Of a DNA stretch of 26,196 bases, positions 2,966 through 26,196 are shown piece after piece. The stretch is taken from IMG/VR virus record IMGVR_UViG_2874945390_000006, positions 1-26,196 of that record; one strand, given 5' to 3'. Made by a program: the position numbers and the translations under genes. The first letter of the stretch is position 1; every line of letters begins with the position of its first letter. The stretch is from a virus. Taxonomy: Duplodnaviria; Heunggongvirae; Uroviricota; Caudoviricetes. The notes below the pieces were generated by a model. It was not told the DNA's origin. It was given only the letters and a program-made list of their open reading frames with translations, and made no database searches.

Positions 2966-4165
2966 TTACCCCCTGAAGCCTGGCGGGATCGCACTGTCCG
3001 GCAACGAGACGGTGTTAACCTGTCGGAGCAACGTCTCAGGCCGAACACCTTTCGGCGCGAACAGACCCTGGTATTCATTGGCGATGCTGTGTCGAATCAC
3101 CTGCTCAGGTGTAAAACCCTGCTGACGGAATTTTTCCAGTTCCCGTATCGCCCCGTTAGCGCCCTGCTCCGTTCGAATTGGTTTTCGCAATGCCTGCCTG
3201 AACTGGACCCACTCATGCCAGAGTGTTTCTGGCAACCAGTCGGGCAGATCAACTGACAACGGGTCAAATTTTTTCTGGCGAACAGCCCCACCGATAACCA
3301 GAATTCCCTGCTCGGTGTGCCTTGCGATATCACTGCGCCGCAAGACACATATCCCGGTTTCAACAGCACCGATTTTGAGCAGTGATTTCTGTCGCGGAGA
3401 ATTTCGGTCAAGCTCGATCCCACACCGGACACCGTTCCTGTCAGTCACGACGATATCAATCCGCCCTCCGCAACCGTCACCACGCTCTGGCACCGGATAC
3501 TCACGACAGACATCCAGGCCAGCAGCCTGCAACGCAACCACCGCAGAATTACAAAATTCCGCTGCAGTACCGCCAGATAATCTCCCCTCAAGCACTCCAG
3601 CCACAAAATCCCGAAACTCCCTTCCGGAAGGGAAGGGTTTGGGATGGGTTAGATCTGTTTTTAGAGCTTTATCTGTATCTTTATTAGTTGCCTTTGTGTT
3701 GGCATCATGTTCGAACACCACTCCAACATCTGTTTGAACACCTGTTAAATTTCTCTCTTGTTTTGTTTGAACATCTGCTTCCTTTCTGCTTCTTCTGGCC
3801 TGAACAGATGCTTTTCCTGCGGCTGATTTTTTGGTTAATTTTTCTCTGACAGATGCCAGATCTTCCTCAATCCGAAGATGCATCCATTCGTCGCCGTTAT
3901 CACAAAAAAACTCCCGCAAGGATGGTTCAACATCAACCCATCGCTCGTTAGTCAGACGGGCAATTTTTGCCAACCTGTTTTTGGGTATTGGCTTTCCTGT
4001 TTGCCAGTAATTGAACATCAGCAACAAATACGCGCCGTGCTCCTCTGCTGACAAATGCATGGTGTCAGCCAGGTAATCAGCTATGTACAGTTGCATGTAT
4101 GGTAATGCGGCCATAATTGCCCCGTATGATGCTGCCCGGTTGCTTAGAATAAGCACAAACAGCAT
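2966..4165 (-). CDS. Phage replication initiation protein, YdaU/DUF1376-like N-terminus with additional central and C-terminal domains
   Basis: N-terminal region MAALPYMQLYIADYLADTMHLSAEEHGAYLLLMFNYW resembles DUF1376; sits immediately upstream of and translationally coupled to the DnaC-like gene. True start may be the internal ATG at 4114. Central segment GRIDIVVTDRNGVRCGIELD is of unknown function. Confidence 0.55.
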   Translation of the reverse strand: MLFVLILSNRAASYGAIMAALPYMQLYIADYLADTMHLSAEEHGAYLLLMFNYWQTGKPIPKNRLAKIARLTNERWVDVEPSLREFFCDNGDEWMHLRIEEDLASVREKLTKKSAAGKASVQARRSRKEADVQTKQERNLTGVQTDVGVVFEHDANTKATNKDTDKALKTDLTHPKPFPSGREFRDFVAGVLEGRLSGGTAAEFCNSAVVALQAAGLDVCREYPVPERGDGCGGRIDIVVTDRNGVRCGIELDRNSPRQKSLLKIGAVETGICVLRRSDIARHTEQGILVIGGAVRQKKFDPLSVDLPDWLPETLWHEWVQFRQALRKPIRTEQGANGAIRELEKFRQQGFTPEQVIRHSIANEYQGLFAPKGVRPETLLRQVNTVSLPDSAIPPGFRG

Positions 4166-4273
4166 GGAAACTTTTGCTTAATGAACAATGACAGAATCGT
4201 CGGAAGACCTGAGGTAGCCTGAGTTTAACGGACACTCCTTCCTGAAATAGAATGGCATCAGAAGGAGCTAATA

Positions 4274-4576
4274 ATGAGCAGAAAAACCCAACGTTACTCT
4301 AAAGAGTTCAAAGCCGAAGCTGTCAGAACGGTTCTTGAAAATCAACTTTCGATCAGTGAAGGCGCTTCCCGATTATCCCTTCCTGAAGGCACTTTAGGAC
4401 AATGGGTTACCGCCGCCAGAAAAGGGCTCGGTACTCCTGGTTCCCGCACGGTGGCTGAACTGGAATCTGAAATTCTGCAACTGCGTAAGGCGTTAAATGA
4501 AGCTCGCCTTGAGCGAGATATATTAAAAAAAGCAACAGCGTATTTTGCACAGGAGTCGCTGAAAAATACGCGTTAA
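4274..4576 (+). CDS. IS600 OrfA
   Basis: 100-aa HTH protein; A7 run at 4525-4531 is the likely -1 frameshift site into orfB. Confidence 0.85.
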   Translation: MSRKTQRYSKEFKAEAVRTVLENQLSISEGASRLSLPEGTLGQWVTAARKGLGTPGSRTVAELESEILQLRKALNEARLERDILKKATAYFAQESLKNTR

Positions 4577-4611
4577 TCGAACAATGGCGACAACAATTTC
4601 CCATTGAAGCG

Positions 4612-5430
4612 ATGTGTCAGGTATTTGGTGTATCCAGGAGCGGTTATTACAACTGGGTACAGCATGAACCCTCAGACAGAAAACAAAGTGATGAGCGGCT
4701 AAAACTGGAGATTAAGGTGGCACATATCTGCACTCGCGAAACATATGGAACCCGGCGGCTCCAGACGGAGCTGGCAGAGAATGGCATCATCGTTGGTCGT
4801 GACCGACTGGCACGTCTTCGTAAGGAGCTAAGGCTACGCTGTAAGCAGAAACGCAAGTTCAGAGCGACTACGAACCCGAACCACAATCTGCCAGTTGCGC
4901 CAAATCTGCTGAACCAGACGTTCGCTCCTACAGAACCAAATCAGGTCTGGGTGGCGGACCTGACGTATGTTGCCACACAGGAGGGATGGTTGTACCTCGC
5001 TGGCATCAAAGATGTTTATACGTGCGAAATTGTCGGCTACGCCATGGGAGAGCGCATGACAAAAGAGCTGACAGGTAAAGCCCTGTTTATGGCGCTCAGG
5101 AGCCAGCGCCCACCTGCCGGGCTAATCCACCACTCTGATCGAGGTTCACAGTACTGCGCATACGATTACCGGGTCATACAGGAGCAGTTTGGTCTGAAAA
5201 CATCAATGTCGCGTAAAGGTAACTGTTACGACAACACTCCGATGGAAAGCTTCTGGGGAACGCTGAAAAATGAGAGCCTGAGCCACTATCGTTTTAATAA
5301 CCGGGATGAAGCCATCTCAGTAATACGGGAATACATTGAGATTTTCTACAATCGTCAGCGTCGTCACTCTCGTCTGGGGAATATCTCCCCGGCAGCCTTC
5401 AGGGAAAAATATCATCAGATGGCTGCTTAA
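4612..5430 (+). CDS. IS600 OrfB (DDE transposase catalytic part)
   Basis: 272-aa ORF in the -1 frame; that frame is open back to the A7 run, consistent with an OrfAB fusion. Confidence 0.85.
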   Translation: MCQVFGVSRSGYYNWVQHEPSDRKQSDERLKLEIKVAHICTRETYGTRRLQTELAENGIIVGRDRLARLRKELRLRCKQKRKFRATTNPNHNLPVAPNLLNQTFAPTEPNQVWVADLTYVATQEGWLYLAGIKDVYTCEIVGYAMGERMTKELTGKALFMALRSQRPPAGLIHHSDRGSQYCAYDYRVIQEQFGLKTSMSRKGNCYDNTPMESFWGTLKNESLSHYRFNNRDEAISVIREYIEIFYNRQRRHSRLGNISPAAFREKYHQMAA

Positions 5431-5473
5431 AAAAAGAACAAATGGTAGTGTCCGCTATTGCCAGTACACCTCA

Positions 5474-8303: not shown

Positions 8304-8421
8304 GGCCTGGTACCGCAGACAACTGGATAATGCCGTCAGTGGGATGCACAACAGTGTACTTTACTGGCTGCGGGCTGAGTACCGTAAAACAGACCTCGCG
8401 CAGGATGCGTCCCCGTTAACC
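8212..8421 (+). CDS. Small ORF overlapping the portal 3' end; possibly the displaced N-terminal part of the head morphogenesis gene
   Basis: 70-codon ORF ending in TGA that overlaps the ATG of the next ORF (ATGA); different frame from 8424-9032. Confidence 0.3.
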
Positions 8422-8423
8422 TG

Positions 8424-9032
8424 ATGCGTGGTGCCATGCAGCAACTTGCCCGGCGCTGGCAGAAAAATTTTGACGAAATGGCCCTGCGGCTGGCGAGGCG
8501 GTTTGCCGGTGATGTCCTGAAAAACAGCGATGCGTCACTGTACACTGCGCTCCGTGATGCCGGGTTTACGGTTCCTTTCCGTATGACAACGGAGATGAAT
8601 ACCGCACTTCAGGCCAGCATCACGGAGAATGTGAACCTCATTCGCTCCATCCCGCAGCAACATCTCCCCCAGGTGGAAACACTGGTCATGCAGTCTGTTG
8701 GCCGGGGACGTGACCTGAAAACGCTGACCGATGAACTGGAAAAACGTTACGGCATCACACGACGGCGCGCGGCGCTGATTGCCCGCGACCAGAACAATAA
8801 GGCAACGTCGGTAATGCAGGCCGCCAGACAGCGTTCGGTGGGTATCACTGAAGGTGTCTGGAGGCATTCCCGCGCGGGTAAAACATGGCGTCCGTCGCAT
8901 GTGAAGGCGAACGGTAAACGGTTTGACCTGCGAAAGGGGATGTTTCTGGATGGTAAGTGGGTACTGCCGGGCGAAGAAATCAACTGCCGGTGTGGCTGGG
9001 AGGCCGTTATTCCCGGACTGGAGAAAAAATGA
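8424..9032 (+). CDS. Phage head morphogenesis protein (Mu F / SPP1 gp7-like minor head protein)
   Basis: 202 aa; C-terminal region ...[24 protein letters not shown]...[31 protein letters not shown] resembles the Mu F domain; located after the portal gene. Confidence 0.65.
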
Positions 9033-10862: not shown

Positions 10863-11890
10863 TGAATAAATTTAAACAGCATTATGCGACGGCAAGTCGC
10901 GACTACGGGATTATTCTTCCCGGAGCACAGGCTTATTTGCCGAAGGAGTACGCTGCCGATTACGGACTGGCGATGGACGCGCAGCCTGCGCTGGTCACAG
11001 CGGCTAACAGCGGTATCCCTGCGTATTTCACCAATTACGTTGAGCCAGAACTGATCCGCGTGCTGGTGACGCCGATGAAAGCCGCTCAGATTCTGGGCGA
11101 AACCAAAAAAGGTGACTGGACGACACTGTCGGCACAATTCCCGATTGCAGAATCTGACGGGGAGGTGAGTTCCTACGGGGATTACAGCAACAACGGGGTG
11201 GTAAGCGCAAACGTCAACTGGGTACCGCGCCAGAGCTATCACTTCCAGACCTTCACCGTATGGGGCGAACGTGAGCTGGAGATGTACGGCGCAGCCCGTA
11301 TTGGCTGGGCGGCAGAGCTGAACGTGGCGTCAGCACTGACGCTGAATAAGTTCCAGAATAAGTCCTATTTCTACGGTATTGCCGGACTGACGAACTACGG
11401 TTTGCTGAATGATCCGTCGTTATCTGCACCAATCACCCCGGATACCGTTGACGGTAAACTGAAGTGGGACGACAAGGACGGACAGGGCGTGTATGACGAT
11501 ATCGTGAAACTCTTTGAGCAACTGGTGAAACAGACTAACGGTCATATTGAGCGTACCGACAAAATGAAACTGTGCATGTCGCCGCTGGCAGAGGTGAACC
11601 TCACCAAAACAAACCAGTACAGGGTTAACGTGTCCGATCTGCTGGCGAAAAATTTCCCGGCGATGACCATTGAAACGGCGGTGGAATACACCTCTGACGC
11701 TGGCGAGCTGGTACAGCTTATCGCGGAGCGTCTGGGTGAACAGGATACAGGCTATTGCGCTTTCACTGAAAAAATGCGCGCCCATGCGGTAGTGGCAGAT
11801 ACGTCTTCCTGGAAACAGAAAAAATCCGCTGGTACCTGGGGGGCGATTATTCGCCAGCCGCTGGCGTATGCACAAATGCTGGGGGTGTGA
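10862..11890 (+). CDS. Major capsid protein
   Basis: 342-aa ORF in the canonical position after scaffold and decoration genes; ATG overlaps the upstream stop (TAATG). Confidence 0.6.
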
Positions 11891-12246: not shown

Positions 12247-13278
12247 ATGGGTACGGTGACGTTTGACTGTCGGATGTTTGTCAGTCTGTACCCGGAGTTT
12301 TCCACGGTGACACCGGAGCTACTGACGGCGGTGTTTAACCAGGCGACCGCGTTGTACCTGGATAACACGGACGACAGTCCGGTTACCGACCTGAAGGAGC
12401 GGGAACAGCTTCTGTTCCTGCTGGTTGCGCATCTGTGCGCATTGCGGGGGCTGGGAAACGGGAGAGACGGGCAGGCTGGTCTGGTGGGGCGTATCACCAG
12501 TGCGTCGGAAGGTTCTGTATCGGTATCGGTGGATAATAGCGGCAGTAATGATGCGTCGTGGTGGTATCTCCAGACCCCCTGGGGTGCTGACTACTGGCAG
12601 GCGACAGCGCCATACCGCTCAATGCAGTATCATTCCGGGGGGCACCTTCGCGATATCCGGGGCATTATTACCGGGGATACGGGAGGGGCGTCGATGGTAA
12701 ATAAAGTCACAGGTGGCAAACAGTTCCGGCAGACGCTGAAACAGGTTGCCGCGAACCTTTCATTGGGTAAAAAACTCAAAGTGGGTTTTCTTGAGGGAGC
12801 AACTTACCCTGACGGTACGTCAGTGGCTTATATTGCCGCAGTTCAGGAGTTTGGCGGAAGAGCGGTCATACCCGCCCGTGAGCAGACGCTCCACTTTCGC
12901 TATAACGAAAAAACGGGAGAAACCGGGCACCGCTTTGTCAAAGCCGGTAAAGGGAATTTTGTTCAGGATGTGGTTATTCCTGAGCACACGGTCACCATTC
13001 CCCCCCGTCCGTTCTTCCGTAAGATGATCGAACATAAAAGTCCCGAATGGGGCGAAAAAATGGCGACCTTATTACGGGCGAATGATTTTGATACTGCGAC
13101 CGCTCTGGTGTGTATGGGAGAACATATCAAAGGGCAGTTGCAGATGTCTGTTCGCGACTGGGAAAGTCCGCCCAACGCTGCATCCACTGCCCGGCAAAAG
13201 GGTTTTAACAACCCGCTTATTGAAACCGGACATATGATGGACAGCGTTGATTATTCTGTAGACGGGGGCAAAAAATGA
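12247..13278 (+). CDS. Head-tail connector-like protein (DUF4054-like N-terminal region fused to an HK97 gp10-like C-terminal region)
   Basis: 343 aa; N-terminal [38 protein letters not shown]... resembles DUF4054; C-terminal part (...[36 protein letters not shown]...) resembles gp10-family tail-completion proteins; Gly-rich linker between them. Confidence 0.4.
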
Positions 13279-13640
13279 ACTTTCACGGTATTGTTTCCGG
13301 CGCAGTACGTCGGGTAAATCCCTTTACAGACGCGCTGGTTTATCGTTCCCGCGGGAGTACACAGCAGGCAGATTATTCCCGCGTACCTGAGTATGAAGAT
13401 CCGGTTTCCGTCAGGGTGCAAAAGCAGGCTGTCACTCAGGCTGATTTACGTCATCTTGATAATCTTAACCAGCAGGGAGTTTTCGCCACATTGTATACCG
13501 ATGGTAACTGGTGCGGGCTTAACCGTGCCCGGCAACAGGGAGGCGATAAATTTGTTATTGGCGATGAAACGTGGCTGGTGATTGAGGTACCGGAAATCTG
13601 TCCTGACTGGACGAGGGTTATTGTATGCCTTCAGGTGTGA
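13275..13640 (+). CDS. Hypothetical phage head-tail joining protein
   Basis: 121-aa ORF overlapping neighbours in the usual ATGA style; position between connector and neck genes. Confidence 0.4.
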
Positions 13641-14171
13641 CCCTCTCCGTTACGGAAAGCGCTCTTTATCAGGCCCTCGGTGATTATCTCCGGGGGCTTT
13701 TTTTCTGATGCCGGGATTGAACGAACGCAGCAGAACCAGGTCCCGATGCCTCAGGGGAATTTCATCACCATGACGGGCATTGATGTTACCGGATTATCCA
13801 CTGCGGTAGTGGCATATTCTGCGCCAGCGCAGGCTGGTGAGGGCTCTCAGCATATCACCCGTACCACAAAATGGCGTTGCCAGCTTGATTTCTACGGCCC
13901 TCACGCGGCAGATAACGCGCAGGTGCTGGCAACGCTTTTCCGGTCTGAATTTTCCGTACGGCTTTTCCGGCAGGGCGGTGGGCTGATTTCCCCGCTGTAT
14001 TGCTCAGAGCCCTTTAACACCACATTCCCCAACGGTCAGCAACAGTATGAACCGCGCTGGACGCTTGATATTCAGATGCAGATTAACCCTGTGGTCACAA
14101 CTTCCCTGATGTTTTTTGACAACGTGATCACCCGGACAACGGAGGCTGATAATGCCAATTCCACTCAGTAA
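13625..14171 (+). pseudogene. Neck/tail terminator-like structural gene interrupted by a +1 frameshift in a T7 homopolymer (13698-13704)
   Basis: ATG 13625 with RBS GAGGG 8 nt upstream gives [27 protein letters not shown] and stops at 13706-13708; the remainder of the protein (SDAGIERTQQNQVPMPQG..., track ORF 13680-14171) continues in the +1 frame. Removing one T from the run fuses the two. Confidence 0.5.
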
Positions 14172-16779: not shown

Positions 16780-16822
16780 TGAGGTGTACTGGCAATAGCG
16801 GACACTACCATTTGTTCTTTTT

Positions 16823-17641
16823 TTAAGCAGCCATCTGATGATATTTTTCCCTGAAGGCTGCCGGGGAGATATTCCCCAGACGAGAGTGACGACGCTGACG
16901 ATTGTAGAAAATCTCAATGTATTCCCGTATTACTGAGATGGCTTCATCCCGGTTATTAAAACGATAGTGGCTCAGGCTCTCATTTTTCAGCGTTCCCCAG
17001 AAGCTTTCCATCGGAGCGTTGTCGTAACAGTTACCTTTACGCGACATTGATGTTTTCAGACCAAACTGCTCCTGTATGACCCGGTAATCGTATGCGCAGT
17101 ACTGTGAACCTCGATCAGAGTGGTGGATTAGCCCGGCAGGTGGGCGCTGGCTCCTGAGCGCCATAAACAGGGCTTTACCTGTCAGCTCTTTTGTCATGCG
17201 CTCTCCCATGGCGTAGCCGACAATTTCGCACGTATAAACATCTTTGATGCCAGCGAGGTACAACCATCCCTCCTGTGTGGCAACATACGTCAGGTCCGCC
17301 ACCCAGACCTGATTTGGTGCTGTAGGAGCGAACGTCTGGTTCAGCAGATTTGGCGCAACTGGCAGATTGTGGTTCGGGTTCGTAGTCGCTCTGAACTTGC
17401 GTTTCTGCTTACAGCGTAGCCTTAGCTCCTTACGAAGACGTGCCAGTCGGTCACGACCAACGATGATGCCATTCTCTGCCAGCTCCGTCTGGAGCCGCCG
17501 GGTTCCATATGTTTCGCGAGTGCGGATATGTGCCACCTTAATCTCCAGTTTTAGCCGCTCATCACTTTGTTTTCTGTCTGAGGGTTCATGCTGTACCCAG
17601 TTGTAATAACCGCTCCTGGATACACCAAATACCTGACACAT
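16823..17641 (-). CDS. IS600 OrfB (transposase catalytic part)
   Basis: 272 aa, near-identical to the copy 1 OrfB (I/R, E/A and T/A differences). Confidence 0.85.
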   Translation of the reverse strand: MCQVFGVSRSGYYNWVQHEPSDRKQSDERLKLEIKVAHIRTRETYGTRRLQTELAENGIIVGRDRLARLRKELRLRCKQKRKFRATTNPNHNLPVAPNLLNQTFAPTAPNQVWVADLTYVATQEGWLYLAGIKDVYTCEIVGYAMGERMTKELTGKALFMALRSQRPPAGLIHHSDRGSQYCAYDYRVIQEQFGLKTSMSRKGNCYDNAPMESFWGTLKNESLSHYRFNNRDEAISVIREYIEIFYNRQRRHSRLGNISPAAFREKYHQMAA

Positions 17642-17676
17642 CGCTTCAACAGGGAATTGTTGTCGCCATTGTTCGA

Positions 17677-17979
17677 CTAACGCGTATTTTTCAGCGACTC
17701 CTGTGCAAAATACGCTGTTGCTTTTTTTAATATATCTCGCTCAAGGCGAGCTTCATTTAACGCCTTACGCAGTTGCAGAATTTCAGATTCCAGTTCAGCC
17801 ACCGTGCGGGAACCAGGAGTACCGAGCCCTTTTCTGGCGGCGGTAACCCATTGTCCTAAAGTGCCTTCAGGAAGGGATAATCGGGAAGCGCCTTCACTGA
17901 TCGAAAGTTGATTTTCAAGAACCGTTCTGACAGCTTCGGCTTTGAACTCTTTAGAGTAACGTTGGGTTTTTCTGCTCAT
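17677..17979 (-). CDS. IS600 OrfA
   Basis: 100 aa, identical to the copy 1 OrfA; T7 run 17722-17728 is the reverse complement of the slippery A7. Confidence 0.85.
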   Translation of the reverse strand: MSRKTQRYSKEFKAEAVRTVLENQLSISEGASRLSLPEGTLGQWVTAARKGLGTPGSRTVAELESEILQLRKALNEARLERDILKKATAYFAQESLKNTR

Positions 17980-18043
17980 TATTAGCTCCTTCTGATGCCA
18001 TTCTATTTCAGGAAGGAGTGTCCGTTAAACTCAGGCTACCTCA

Positions 18044-20430: not shown

Positions 20431-20512
20431 GTAAGCGCCCCATCAGCGACGTCTTGTGAAAATTGTCCTGTCTGGCAACAATCGCGCCCATCTATATAGA
20501 TGGACACGAACG

Positions 20513-21187
20513 ATGAATTCCCAGACAAAAAAAGATATTCCCTGCTTCCGTTCTTATTTGCCTGATGCCCTGCGTTTAAGATTTGAAGATAAACTGACCA
20601 TCCGGGCCATCGCTCAGCGTCTGGGTCTCAGTCATTCCACAATACATACGCTTTTTCAGCGATTTCTTGCATCCGGTATCGCATGGCCATTGCCCGATTC
20701 AGTTTCATTCGCTCAACTTGACGCCATCCTTTATGCCAACAGAAAGAAGGAATTAACAGAGCCTCAAATCAGAGAAGGCTCATGGCGAAAAGAACGGCGA
20801 ACCAGCTATAGCCGTGAATTTAAGGTCCGTCTGGCTAAGCAGGCGTTACAGCCTGGGGCTGTTGTTGCCCGGATCGCCAGAGAACACGATATCAATAATA
20901 ACCTGCTGTTTAAATGGAAAAGCCAGTACGAGGACGGCTTACTGAGCGATGATGACATACAGGAATGCATGCCTGTCCCGGTGGCACTGACTGATACGCC
21001 GGAGCCGACCAGACCAGTTACAAATCCCTTCTGGCGTAACAAGCATGATGAGCGCCCTGAGGGGGCTCCCGGAAACGTCCCACGGTGCGAGCTGCATCTT
21101 AAATCAGGTGTGGTAAAACTGTTTGACCCTCTCACTCCGGAACTGTTACGGGCGCTAATCCGCGAAATGAAAGGGGGTATCCGATGA
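20513..21187 (+). CDS. IS66-family TnpA (Orf1, HTH accessory protein)
   Basis: Start at ATG 20513 (MNSQTKK...); contains ...RRTSYSREFKVRLAKQALQPGAVVARIAREHDINNNLLFKWKSQYEDG typical of IS66 Orf1. The track ORF begins at 20456, inside the inverted repeat. Confidence 0.7.
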   Translation: MNSQTKKDIPCFRSYLPDALRLRFEDKLTIRAIAQRLGLSHSTIHTLFQRFLASGIAWPLPDSVSFAQLDAILYANRKKELTEPQIREGSWRKERRTSYSREFKVRLAKQALQPGAVVARIAREHDINNNLLFKWKSQYEDGLLSDDDIQECMPVPVALTDTPEPTRPVTNPFWRNKHDERPEGAPGNVPRCELHLKSGVVKLFDPLTPELLRALIREMKGGIR

Positions 21188-21531
21188 TAACGCTGCCGAC
21201 CGGTACCAAAATCTGGATCATCGCTGGCATCACAGATATGCGTTGTGGCTTCAATGGCCTGGCTTCGAAGGTGCAGAACACGCTGAAAGATGACCCGTTC
21301 TCCGGGCATATCTTCGTCTTCCGGGGCCGCAGTGGCAAAATGGTGAAAATACTGTGGGCCGATCGTGACGGGTTATGCCTGTTCGCCAAACGCCTGGAAC
21401 GGGGCCGCTTCGTCTGGCCGGTGACCCGGGAAGGGAAAGTGCACCTGACGCCAGCTCAGTTATCCATGCTACTGGAGGGGATCGCGTGGCAACATCCCAA
21501 ACGGACAGAACGGCCTGGCATCCGGATATAA
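21184..21531 (+). CDS. IS66-family TnpB (Orf2)
   Basis: 115 aa, MITLPTGTKIWIIAGITDMRCGFNGL...ILWADRDGLCLFAKRLERGRFVWP, the conserved IS66 Orf2 family. Confidence 0.85.
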   Translation: MITLPTGTKIWIIAGITDMRCGFNGLASKVQNTLKDDPFSGHIFVFRGRSGKMVKILWADRDGLCLFAKRLERGRFVWPVTREGKVHLTPAQLSMLLEGIAWQHPKRTERPGIRI

Positions 21532-21592
21532 CCCGTGATAAAACAAGGGAATGAACAATTAACTCCCCGATGATATTGAGCTGCTTAAAGCC

Positions 21593-23157
21593 ATGTTGCG
21601 TAAGCAACAGAGTCGGCTTCGACAGTATGCCTGTCAGGTCGCGGGCTATGAGCAGGAAATTGAACGGCTGAAAGCGCAACTCGACAGGTTGCGTCGTATG
21701 TTGTTCGGCCAGAGTTCAGAGAAAAAGCGTCATAAGCTTGAAAATCAGATCCGACAGGCAGAAAAACGACTGTCGGAACTGGAAAACCGGCTGAACACAG
21801 CCAGAAATCTTCTGGAAGATGCATCGTCAGTCACAGATTCACCTGACACCAGTCCCCCGTCAGAAAACCCGATCGCCAGTAAGCCTGAATCCCCGGGACG
21901 AAAATCTTCACGAAAACCGCTGCCGGCAGAACTTCCCCGGGAGACACATCGCCTTCTGCCTGCTGAAACCAGTTGCCCGGCCTGTGGAGGTGTTCTGAAA
22001 GAAATGGGGGAAACAATCTCAGAGCAACTGGATATCATTAATACCGCCTTTAAAGTTATCGAAACCATACGTCCCAAACTGGCCTGTAGCCGGTGTGATG
22101 TCATCGTTCAGGCACCACTTCCCCCTAAACCGATCGAACGCGGTTATGCCAGTGCAGGGTTACTTGCACGGATCCTGGTCAGCAAATATATGGAACATAT
22201 CCCTTTATATCGCCAGTCAGAAATATACGCGCGACAGGGCGTGGAGCTGAGCCGTAATACCATGGTGCGCTGGGTATCAGAAATGGCAGACAAACTCCGT
22301 CCTCTGTATATAGCGCTGAATGACTATGTTCTTGAGGCAGGAAAGGTGCACGCAGATGGCACTCCGGTGAAAGTACTGGCCCCGGGGAACGGAAAGACGA
22401 AAACGGGTCGTCTGTGGGTATACGTCAGGGATGATCGTAATGCGGGTTCATCCCTGCCGGCAGCCGTCTGGTTCGCGTATTCGGCAGATCGCAAAGGAGA
22501 ACATCCGCAGCTCCACCTGGCAAAGTATCAGGGCGTACTGCACTGCAGGCTGATGCCTATGCAGGTTATAACGTACTGTACGAAACGGGCCGGGTGAAGG
22601 AAGCCGGGTGCCTGGCCCACGCCCGCCGAAAAATCCATGACGAGGATGTGCGCCGTCCGACAGAAATGACTCAGGAAGCGCTCAGACGGATAGCAGAGTT
22701 ATACGACATAGAAGCGGAGATACGTGGCAGTCCGGCAGAGGAACGGCTTGCAGTCAGAAAAGCCAGAAGCGTCCAGTTGATGCAGTCGTTGTACGACTGG
22801 ATACAGTTGCAGAGGAAAACGCTGTCGAAACATGCGGAGATGGCGAAGGCGTTCGACTATATCCTGAATCACTGGAATGCGCTGAACGAGTTCTGTCGTG
22901 ACGGCTGGGTGGAAATAGACAACAACATCGGTGAAAACGCGTTACGATCGGTGGCGGTTGGAAGAAAAAATTATCTCTTTTTCGGCTCAGACAAGGGAGG
23001 AGAAAGTGCGGCGATCATCTACAGTCTGCTGGTCACCTGCAAACAGAACGAAGTGGAGCCGGAGGACTGGTTGCGCGAAGTGATCGAGAAGCTCAATGAC
23101 TGGCCGTCGAACCAAGTGCATGAACTGCTGCCCTGGAACTTCTCGTCTGTAAAATAA
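21593..23157 (+). pseudogene. IS66-family transposase TnpC (Orf3), disrupted by a 5-bp tandem duplication (CTGCA CTGCA at 22538-22547)
   Basis: Track ORFs 21593-22597 and 22594-23157 are two halves of one transposase (…CPACGG…HADGTPV…[12 protein letters not shown]… then …[13 protein letters not shown]…[13 protein letters not shown]…). Deleting 5 nt restores the conserved [32 protein letters not shown] stretch. Confidence 0.8.
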
Positions 23158-23189
23158 TCCTTACGCTACGTACTTCTCGGGGCGCTTAC

Positions 23190-23795
23190 ATTGGTACGAC
23201 GAATGCGTTAGGTGGAAGTTCAATCGTTTTAGGAGATAACGATACCGGGTTTAAACAAAATGGCGATGGTCTGCTTGATGTTTATGCGAATGGACAGCAT
23301 GTATTTCGTTTTCAGAATGGCGTGGCTATTGCTTTTAAGAATATTCAGGCCGGAACTGCCAGAAAATTCACGTTATCCAGCGCCAACAACTCCACGAAAA
23401 ATGCAGCGTTTTGTTTGTGGGGTAATCCATCCAGGCCTGTTGTTGCAGAGCTTGGTGATGATTCAGGCTGGCATTTTTTCAGCCAGAGAAACCCGGATAA
23501 CAGCATAGTGTTCACTGTTAACGGACAGGTAATTCCGTTAAATTACGGAAACTTCGATGCCCGCTATAAATATCGAACAGAGGGGGTACAGGATGTACGG
23601 TATGGCCATGAAATGTATTACAGCCCCGGCAGTAACACCGTTTCGTGGAGATTTTGCGCACCTTCGGGACACGGGCTGTCAGGGATGGCGATATCGGATA
23701 CCGGCCGTAACTCAGCGGATAACGTTGACGGTGTGTATTACCGACCACTGCAAAAACTGATTAATGGCACCTGGTATAACGTAGCGAGTATTTAA
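23190..23795 (+). pseudogene. 3' fragment of a side tail fibre gene (receptor-binding C-terminal region), 5' end lost at the IS66-family right end
   Basis: Frame is open from the IS boundary with no upstream start in phage sequence; ends ...YYRPLQKLINGTWYNVASI, resembling the C-terminus of lambdoid Stf proteins; a tail fibre assembly gene follows 3 bp later. Confidence 0.6.
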
Positions 23796-23797
23796 CA

Positions 23798-24220
23798 ATG
23801 TTGCATTTAAAAAATATTACTGCGGGTAATCCGAAAACAGCAGAACAATATCAGATGACAAAACGATATTCGGTCACCTGGCTTTTTTCAGAAGACGGAA
23901 AAAACTGGTATGAAGAGCTGAAGAATTTCGCCAGCGACACAATAAAAATAGCTTACACCGGAGATGGTCGCGTGGTGTGGGTCGGTAAGGATGTGACAGG
24001 CATCGAGCCACGCAATGCCAGCGTTATCGAAGTTCCGGATATTACCGCTAACCGACGGATTACCGCGCCGGGTTACTGGTTTTACCGCAATGATGAATTT
24101 GTCTTTGACTACAGACTCAAAGCGGAAGATGAGCGTGATGCCCTTCTGGCTCAGGTCAGTGCCCGGACAGGGGAATGGGAAGAAGACCTGCTGCTGGGGT
24201 TAATCAGCGAGAAAAGCTGA
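23798..24220 (+). CDS. Tail fibre assembly protein, Mu U-like N-terminus; C-terminus atypical
   Basis: N-terminus MLHLKNITAGNPKTAEQYQMTKRYSVTWLFSEDGKNWYEE...VIEVPDITANRR matches the Mu U/Tfa family; starts 3 bp after the fibre fragment stop. Confidence 0.65.
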   Translation: MLHLKNITAGNPKTAEQYQMTKRYSVTWLFSEDGKNWYEELKNFASDTIKIAYTGDGRVVWVGKDVTGIEPRNASVIEVPDITANRRITAPGYWFYRNDEFVFDYRLKAEDERDALLAQVSARTGEWEEDLLLGLISEKS

Positions 24221-24356
24221 AAGCCTGTCGTATTTACGCGAAATCACTGCAGGCGATGGATTTCAGCACCATCACTGATAAATCCTCATACAACGCCATT
24301 GAATGGTCCGTCTCTCCGGAAGGTTCTTCCTGATTTAATTTATCGCGAGAAAAACT

Positions 24357-25622
24357 ATGTCTGTAGTGATATCAGGTGCGCTGACTGATGGCGCAGGTAT
24401 CCCCATGTCCGGATACCATATTATTCTGAAATCCCGGGTAAACACCCCGGAAGTGGTGATGCACACTGTTGCTGATGTGATGACAGGAAACGATGGTGAA
24501 TACTGTTTCCATGCGCGGACTGGAAAATATGGTGTGTATCTGAAACAGGACTGGCGCAACGAGTACTGTGTTGGCGACATTGCTGTATACGACGACTCAA
24601 AGCCCGGCACGCTGAATGACTTTCTGATTGCTCCTGATGAGGGCGACCTGAAACCGGATGTCGTCAAACGCTTTGAGGAAATGGTGGCGCAGGCGCAGCA
24701 GAGCGCCGGGGCCGCAGCCGGAAACGCACGGCAGACGGCGCAGGATGTGGCGGCAGCCGCAGGTTATGCCCGCGCAGCAGAACAGGCCAAAAATGACATT
24801 GATGCTGCGCTGACCGGCACTCTGAAAACGGCTAACCATCTGTCTGAAATCGCAGCAGCAGGCGAAAAGGCACAACAGAAGTCCCGGGATAGTCTGGGGC
24901 TGAAAAGTGCAGCCACGATGGAAGCACAGAGCGACATTTACGACCGGACAAAAGGCCGTCTGGCGATACCCGGCGCATTCGGCTTTGGGCGTGCTTTTCT
25001 GTATGAAGATGTTATCCGTTTTGACGCTAAGGATGATTTCCTGGCCTGGGTAAGGAATGCGCTGCCAGGTGAATATTCCGTTGCTGCCCCCTACGACATC
25101 ATCATACCCGACGCACTGTTTGAAGGGGGGCTCAGCATCCGGTGGACTGATGCACGCCCTGAGACAAGGGAACCGCGGCGCAGAGCCAAATCCCTTACTT
25201 TTTACGGCATTAACGGCCCCATTTATCACGCCCGCTACCGGCTCTTATCTGGATTTCTGACTGACTGGGTGAAAATAAATATAACCACAGAAGATATTAT
25301 TTACAGAATCGTGGCGAGCTCTGTCCGCAACAGATGGGGAGACCCTGACATTGGCGGGCTGATTATTGCTGCGTACCAGGGAGAAGCTGACGGTGATAAA
25401 GACATCAGACTTGTCAGGGGGCGGTCATACAGAGGCTCACGACTGGGACCGGTGGGGATTTCAGCGCCCTGTACTCCCACCGGAACGCATATAGTATACC
25501 CACAATATTTCATTACGGGATGTTCAGAGCATTCATTACCGGGGTCATATTGCGCCCTGTCCGGGGTGCCGGATACATATGTCTCTGGCGCAATGCTTGG
25601 GCTTTTTATTCGCACATCGTGA
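24357..25622 (+). CDS. Side tail fibre protein with prophage tail-fibre N-terminal domain
   Basis: 421 aa; N-terminus MSVVISGALTDGAGIPMSGYHIILKSRVNTPEVV...VYDDSKPGTLNDFLIAPDEGDLKPDVV parallels the conserved N-terminal domain of E. coli prophage Stf proteins, followed by an Ala/Gln-rich coiled region and a distinct C-terminal domain. Confidence 0.65.
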   Translation: MSVVISGALTDGAGIPMSGYHIILKSRVNTPEVVMHTVADVMTGNDGEYCFHARTGKYGVYLKQDWRNEYCVGDIAVYDDSKPGTLNDFLIAPDEGDLKPDVVKRFEEMVAQAQQSAGAAAGNARQTAQDVAAAAGYARAAEQAKNDIDAALTGTLKTANHLSEIAAAGEKAQQKSRDSLGLKSAATMEAQSDIYDRTKGRLAIPGAFGFGRAFLYEDVIRFDAKDDFLAWVRNALPGEYSVAAPYDIIIPDALFEGGLSIRWTDARPETREPRRRAKSLTFYGINGPIYHARYRLLSGFLTDWVKINITTEDIIYRIVASSVRNRWGDPDIGGLIIAAYQGEADGDKDIRLVRGRSYRGSRLGPVGISAPCTPTGTHIVYPQYFITGCSEHSLPGSYCALSGVPDTYVSGAMLGLFIRTS

Positions 25623-25632
25623 GGAATGCACC

Positions 25633-26196
25633 GTGGAAATTAAAAAAATCATTAATCCCCGTTATACCGAAAGTGGCGCAGTAGACTGTGACGTTTTTTT
25701 TGACGACAGGGACCAGGCAGTCCCCTACACAGCCACCGCTGATGATGTCGCTTCGACGGGTCAGCAAATCTGGCAGGAACTGCAAAGCGGCAAATGGGGT
25801 GAGATAGCCCCATTCACTGTGACACCAGAAATGCTGGAAGCGGCCAGAGAGGCCAGACGTCAGGGAATTGAAGCATGGCGCACAGAACAGGAGGCGAAGC
25901 CGTTCACGTTTGAATGGAACGGTCGTATCTGGAATGCTGGCCCCAACTCACTGGGCCGCCTTTATCCGGTGGTAATGGCTGCGAAATCCGACATTGTACG
26001 GGACGTGATGACGTGGGGTGATGCCGATAATCAGCAGGTGAAACTGTCGATGCCGGAACTGGAAGAACTGGCGGCAGCAATGGCTCAGGCACAGGTTGAG
26101 CGCAATGACGAGATTTATCGCCGTCAGCGGGAGCTGAAGGAAGAGCTGAATAGTCTGAAGGATTTGAATTCGGTTAGGAATTTTATCGTGGAATAA
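25633..26196 (+). CDS. Putative tail fibre assembly/chaperone protein
   Basis: 188 aa from GTG 25633 (RBS GAGGAA 7 nt upstream); the track ORF starts earlier at 25579 and overlaps the fibre gene. Assigned by position directly downstream of the fibre gene; stop TAA at the last three bases of the window. Confidence 0.4.
   Translation: MEIKKIINPRYTESGAVDCDVFFDDRDQAVPYTATADDVASTGQQIWQELQSGKWGEIAPFTVTPEMLEAAREARRQGIEAWRTEQEAKPFTFEWNGRIWNAGPNSLGRLYPVVMAAKSDIVRDVMTWGDADNQQVKLSMPELEELAAAMAQAQVERNDEIYRRQRELKEELNSLKDLNSVRNFIVE

Follow-up and report, generated by a model that had tools for sequence, protein, structure and literature searches.

A split neck/tail terminator gene in a defunct Shigella boydii prophage is most probably a homopolymer error of the genome record

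The stretch of 26,196 nucleotides analysed here, called the window throughout, was placed by exact-protein look-ups on the chromosome CP026836.1 (assembly GCA_002950135.1, 5,106,737 bp), which is cited as Shigella boydii in PMC12817139. It carries a prophage of the E217-like myovirus type, a defunct member of a kind known in Shigella and EIEC. The features of the window are listed in Table 1. Several lesions of this prophage are not artefacts, namely the two IS600 copies, the ISSfl3 element with the accompanying baseplate deletion, and a short duplication within the tnpC gene of ISSfl3. Where ISSfl3 is located in the window, relatives of the prophage possess baseplate, hub, spike and J-plate genes, and the window has lost tail genes amounting to about 5 kb. 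The duplication becomes apparent in comparison to an intact copy of the element, it splits tnpC into parts of 334 and 187 aa, and it is unlikely to be a sequencing error. An overlap of 3 bp between the alignments on either side of the second IS600 copy suggests a duplicated target site.

The tail-fibre region at the right end differs in its similarity to EIEC relatives from the rest of the prophage. It showed approximately 93% identity with 30 gap positions, unlike the remaining prophage, which was approximately 99.7% identical. The comparison suggests a host-range module of mosaic or recombined origin. Just past this module, relatives carry an ipaH effector gene.

Table 1 Features of the 26,196-nt window, with positions counted from its first letter
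Feature	Positions	Strand	Remarks
Phage-type integrase fragment	1-873	-
IS3-family element	about 844-2088
IstB/DnaC-like prophage replication gene	2213-2959	-
DUF1376 prophage replication gene	2966-4165	-
IS600, copy 1	4210-5473	+	truncates the large terminase gene
A7 run of IS600 copy 1	4525-4531		annotated programmed -1 frameshift
C4 run	8407-8410	+	C5 in all relatives; truncates the Mu-F-like head morphogenesis gene
202-aa ORF	8424-9032		head morphogenesis product in this record
343-aa ORF	12247-13278		joins two neck genes
G6 run	12637-12642; indel at 12636	+	G7 in same-haplotype short-read contigs; fuses two neck genes
Shine-Dalgarno-like GAGGG	13613-13617	+	7-nt spacer to ATG 13625-13627; read from the sequence
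Terminator gene, 5' fragment	13625-13708	+	27 codons plus TGA; ORF list
GTG-initiated ORF	13680-14171	+	163 aa, +1 frame, stop 14169-14171; mechanical ORF list
G5-C-T7 double homopolymer tract	13692-13704	+	G5 13692-13696, C 13697, T7 13698-13704, then TGA 13706-13708; seventh T is the frameshifting base; read from the sequence
Terminator gene, 3' part	13707-14171	+	+1 frame; PF23961 96 bits and NF047498 66 bits on the 163-aa ORF
IS600, copy 2	16780-18043	-	splits the tape-measure/SLT (lytic-transglycosylase) gene
T7 run of IS600 copy 2	17722-17728		annotated programmed -1 frameshift; letters of the + strand, copy on the reverse strand
ISSfl3 (IS66 family; tnpA, tnpB, tnpC)	20431-23189		replaces baseplate genes
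5-bp tandem duplication ACTGC in tnpC	22537-22541
Tail-fibre, fibre-assembly and 'prophage tail fibre N-terminal' genes	23517-26166

Between the neck genes and the sheath gene of the prophage lies a gene that is broken in this record. Its upstream neighbours encode a gp27-like DUF4054 protein, a Neck1/tail-completion-like protein and a gp28-like collar protein, and downstream follow the sheath (DUF3383/E217_gp31) and then the tube (E217_gp32). The sheath gene begins at position 14152, within the 3' end of the broken gene. The sequence-only reading had described an ATG with a ribosome binding site whose frame runs into a stop just behind a run of seven T, the remainder of the protein being encoded in the +1 frame up to position 14171; each of these elements was found where it had been placed. 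When one T was deleted, a gene of 546 nt and 181 codons was obtained, the product of which is identical to WP_001139094.1. Downstream of the tract, the amino acids encoded in the window are those of WP_001139094.1 as they stand. A or T runs of at least seven bases occur 14 times in the window, and T7 is unremarkable by itself.

The repaired 181-aa protein was matched by three family profiles. It scored 105.6 bits against PF23961 (Phage_tail_terminator_9; cut-off 27) over profile positions 2-144 and 70.9 bits against NF047498 (LIC_12616 family; cut-off 28), and it matched PHROG 1876 with residues 4-177. The 163-aa ORF also passes the cut-offs of PF23961 and NF047498, and its match to PF23961 begins only at position 18. 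The residues encoded by the 27-codon fragment supply what is missing there: they align to positions 2-17 of PF23961, to PHROG 1876 and to the phage homologs. As PF23961 and PHROG 1876 run unbroken across the junction, the two ORFs belong together and are not adjacent by chance, and the proposal of a single neck/tail structural gene divided by a +1 shift in the T-run, with T6 restoring 181 codons, was borne out. The possibility had been left that homologs would start at the GTG at 13680 and lack the N-terminal 27 residues; no such homolog was found, the profiles and all homologs including this segment. A true start at this GTG behind a fortuitous upstream ORF is thereby ruled out.

In searches against PDB structures, a profile built from nine sequences matched 7kjk, annotated as 'Tail terminator protein', with an E-value of 4.8e-4, profile positions 11-163 aligning to chain residues 3-150. 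The single sequence was uninformative, reaching only E=0.74. Since the profile match starts at position 11, the N-terminal segment is part of the fold. Family scores, the position upstream of the sheath gene and the match of the structural profile thus join the gene to the PF23961/NF047498 terminators and to 7kjk, from which it differs in being split in this record, with the 163-aa ORF lacking profile positions 2-17. Judged by its sequence, the gene belongs to a known family of phage neck/tail terminators and is unexceptional within it; its putative function is taken from the family names.

Homologs from cultured phages were examined in eight cases, with hosts among Pantoea, Klebsiella, Burkholderia, Aeromonas, Edwardsiella, Pseudomonas and Ralstonia. 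In all eight the terminator is a single CDS of 168-188 aa without internal stop, the gene order is the same with the terminator directly upstream of the sheath gene, and a homopolymer run of at least five bases is absent from the equivalent position. A distant homolog was aligned by tblastn in one piece from about residue 5 onwards. Among close relatives, eight RefSeq genomes of E. coli (EIEC-like) were 99.6-99.7% identical in this region, and each match was one base shorter than the query. The E. coli records that were fetched contain one 546-nt CDS, annotated as 'phage neck terminator protein', which starts at the equivalent ATG and has T6. This T6 was read from the sequence in six loci of five genomes, and in all eight genomes 1125 of 1126 bases were matched. 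The alignment of both halves to homologs, as the sequence-only reading had proposed, therefore gave one protein in close and distant homologs alike and T6 in the close relatives.

The split terminator is not the only frameshifted gene in this part of the prophage. Across the 11.3 kb that separate the two IS600 copies, approximately 28 substitutions but only three indels distinguish the window from intact EIEC prophages. Each of these indels concerns a single base, is located in a homopolymer and causes a frameshift. One of them is the seventh T of the terminator tract. Another, a C4 run in place of C5, leaves a head morphogenesis product of 202 aa as opposed to 229 or 256 aa elsewhere, and probably arose through an assembly error of the same sort as T7. 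The last, a G6 run, produces an ORF of 343 aa in which the E217-gp27-like DUF4054 gene (152 aa) is joined to the 194-aa gene of the Neck1/tail-completion-like protein. In short-read contigs of the same haplotype this ORF is replaced by two overlapping genes of 152 aa and 194 aa. The 343-aa ORF exists because the G7 run was read as G6, and it is not a real fusion protein. An exact-protein look-up in a collection of approximately 15 billion proteins returned one contig each for the 343-aa and the 202-aa products and two for the 163-aa product, while the intact 181-aa terminator was present in 642 contigs.

The haplotype of the window was defined by three markers, W109C in the gp28-like protein and G173E and V426G in the sheath. 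It was found on 18 contigs, 17 of them from short reads, and the full-length contigs of this haplotype span approximately 11 kb with ends near the two IS600 copies of the window. Nine distinct short-read assemblies were examined at the tract (SRR4787860, ERR200292, ERR5888630, SRR6760302, SRR11215207, ERR13731114, DRR015923, QWSV01000110.1 and DAYJKZ010000126.1); these are tied to the window by haplotype and may derive from strains other than that of CP026836.1. All nine exhibited T6 at position 13698, without any variation in the length of the T-run among them. The short-read assemblies that reach the other two sites carry C5 at 8410 and G7 at 12636. The closest contig, DRR015923_1397 (Logan), shares the only private SNP of the window, at position 11516 (K219E). 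Over 9,029 bp, no substitution separates this assembly from the window; the only differences, exactly three, are the one-base homopolymer indels behind the three frameshifts.

The RefSeq complete E. coli collection contained T6 only and no T7, a search for the allele in GTDB representative genomes returned no match, and JGI metagenomes yielded one contig with T6. Inheritance of T7 within the Shigella lineage was considered and rejected: the lineage mates have T6, and the one other record with T7 belongs to a different haplotype. Variation in another homopolymer of the neck region was also encountered. At the equivalent of positions 13000-13006, SRR4787860 has C8 and not C7, which divides the 194-aa neck gene into parts of 109 and 103 aa and may represent a genuine homopolymer frameshift of this isolate. 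In four sibling PacBio records the run is read as C6.

The accession of CP026836.1 falls within a block, CP0267xx-CP0268xx, which citing papers attribute to the PacBio sequencing of 59 historical Shigella strains (Kim et al. 2018). Sibling records of this block display a pattern of homopolymer errors. In CP026824.1, 13 one-base deletions were counted in 4.7 kb, affecting 8 of 11 G/C runs of at least five bases, the G5 of the terminator tract included, and none of 10 A/T runs of at least six bases. Three further records (CP026823.1, CP026825.1 and CP026842.1) each contain 4-6 one-base indels in 2.6 kb, mostly deletions in G/C runs and not all of them shared. All four records have G4 in place of the G5 of the tract, and three of these four also possess a T-to-A SNP 7 nt upstream. 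From the accession block and the pattern of its siblings we infer that CP026836.1 belongs to this unpolished PacBio series. According to Yassine et al. (2022; PMC8795385), the genomes of the series carry "numerous indels in the homopolymers" and were left out of cgMLST. In the examined rows of its Supplementary Table 1, the PacBio and the Illumina genome of one and the same strain are 29-288 allele differences apart.

Other lengths of the tract occur in several records. T7 was found in two records only, the window and CP091398.1, an unrelated record labelled as E. coli which has a different haplotype and shares none of the SNPs of the window. In the sheath gene of CP091398.1, insertions of 1-3 nt outside homopolymers were observed beside CCGG motifs, together with a change from A6 to A5, and the record looks like another error-laden long-read assembly. 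T5 occurs in the draft contig ADUR01000137.1 of E. coli OK1357. With the exception of this draft contig, all variant tract lengths stem from long-read assemblies with error signatures at the same locus. Across these records the G5-C-T6 tract is affected often. For two T7 calls that were independent and equally likely at any long A/T run, the chance of hitting the same run was estimated from run counts at roughly 5-7%.

Taken as a whole, these observations point strongly to the seventh T being an error of homopolymer length in the consensus of the long-read assembly CP026836.1, a reading in which we have high confidence. It rests on the nine independent short-read assemblies of the same haplotype, in each of which the tract reads T6 and the gene is intact. 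Mutation spectra of E. coli contain about ten times as many substitutions as indels. Three indels to no substitution, as found against the nearest contig, is the reverse of real divergence and constitutes the signature of an unpolished long-read consensus; we infer that the three private indels are miscalls rather than mutations. The S. boydii strain would then most probably carry T6 and an intact 181-aa terminator gene, and this gene would reside in a prophage already crippled by IS600, ISSfl3 and the deletion of baseplate genes. With the errors of the unpolished PacBio (CLR) genomes of Kim et al. (2018), the T7 call shares its nature as a private one-base homopolymer indel with two companions and no substitutions. 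It differs from that set in being an insertion into a T-run, and the membership of CP026836.1 is read from its accession block.

Several findings count against an assembly error. The documented errors of the sibling records are nearly all deletions in G/C runs, and T7 is an insertion in a T-run. Along IS600, ISSfl3 and the tape-measure sequence, 7.7 kb in all, no one-base indel was detected, and other runs of the window, such as G7 and T8, agree with the relatives. Moreover, T7 is also present in CP091398.1, and with the split tnpC of ISSfl3 a genuine frameshift lesion exists in the same window. A generally sloppy assembly across the whole window was accordingly only partly true as an explanation, the error rate being far below that of the sibling CP026824.1.

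The main competitor of the assembly error is a slipped-strand insertion of very recent date that would have turned T6 into T7 in this isolate alone and left a terminator pseudogene, as a further neutral lesion, in a decaying and already non-inducible prophage. Homopolymers are expected sites of spontaneous frameshifts, and the decay of the prophage is evident from the truncated terminase, the split tape-measure/SLT gene, the replaced baseplate genes and the duplication in tnpC; an insertion in a T-run also departs from the G/C-run deletions usual in the series. Against such a mutation stand the T6 of all nine short-read assemblies of the haplotype, among which the frameshift proved private to CP026836.1 and not inherited within the lineage, and the excess of homopolymer indels over substitutions in 9 kb relative to the nearest contig, as published for unpolished PacBio genomes. 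A real slipped-strand mutation is consequently improbable, though it retains a small share of our belief. Among the three causes that the sequence-only reading had offered, sequencing error was thus favoured, slipped-strand mutation persisted as a minor possibility, and an on/off switch found no support.

Such a switch would be one form of a functional tract, the other being programmed +1 slippage, ribosomal or transcriptional, by which full-length terminator would be produced from the T7 allele. The tract does differ between records, both in the T-run (T7 twice, T5 once, in OK1357) and in the G-run (G4 four times), and the mRNA of the T7 allele reads GGGGG-CUU-UUU-UUC-UGA, in which an SD-like G-run precedes the U-run by 3 nt and an in-frame UGA follows. 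We take this context to recall loosely the +1 site of prfB. Re-pairing of tRNA-Phe by +1 on the U-run would restore exactly the wild-type residues G-L-F-S-D. Programmed sites such as prfB (+1, CUU UGA with SD), the orfA-orfB junction of IS3-family elements (-1, A6G/A7) and the tail chaperone G/GT (-1) share with the tract a slippery run, a downstream stop and an upstream G-rich stretch. The two-frame layout of the terminator is, however, not conserved; it was absent from eight E. coli genomes, nine short-read Shigella assemblies and eight cultured phages. Homologs with a single ORF and no conserved slippery run rule out a conserved programmed frameshift, and the A7 runs of IS600 in the same window, which are annotated programmed frameshifts, provide the contrast.

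The tract resembles phase-variable contingency loci in that a mononucleotide repeat close to the start of the gene shifts the frame when its length changes. Known phase-variable tracts are usually longer than the 6-7 nt found here, and the gene encodes a virion part of a dead prophage and not a surface or restriction function. The uniform T-run of the nine short-read assemblies argues against a phase switch, and the metagenome contig likewise has T6. In the intact gene the G5 and T6 runs merely encode R-G-L-F-S. With terminase, tape measure and baseplate all defective or lost in this prophage, there would be nothing for a switch to control, and a functional role of the tract can be considered extremely improbable. 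Scarcely any credence is given either to T7 being real and the G5-C-T6/7 tract a hot spot, whether through recurrent toggling between T5, T6 and T7 in unrelated strains or through prfB-like +1 read-through.

With the assembly error as the preferred explanation, the frameshift most probably has no biological reality. All three apparent frameshifts in the 26-kb window vanish when compared with short-read assemblies, and the fused 343-aa ORF could pass for a novel fusion protein. Homopolymer 'pseudogenes' in CP026836.1 and the other genomes of the series need confirmation by short-read data before they are taken for decay, phase variation or recoding. This caution carries more weight in Shigella, where pseudogene counts support arguments on genome reduction.
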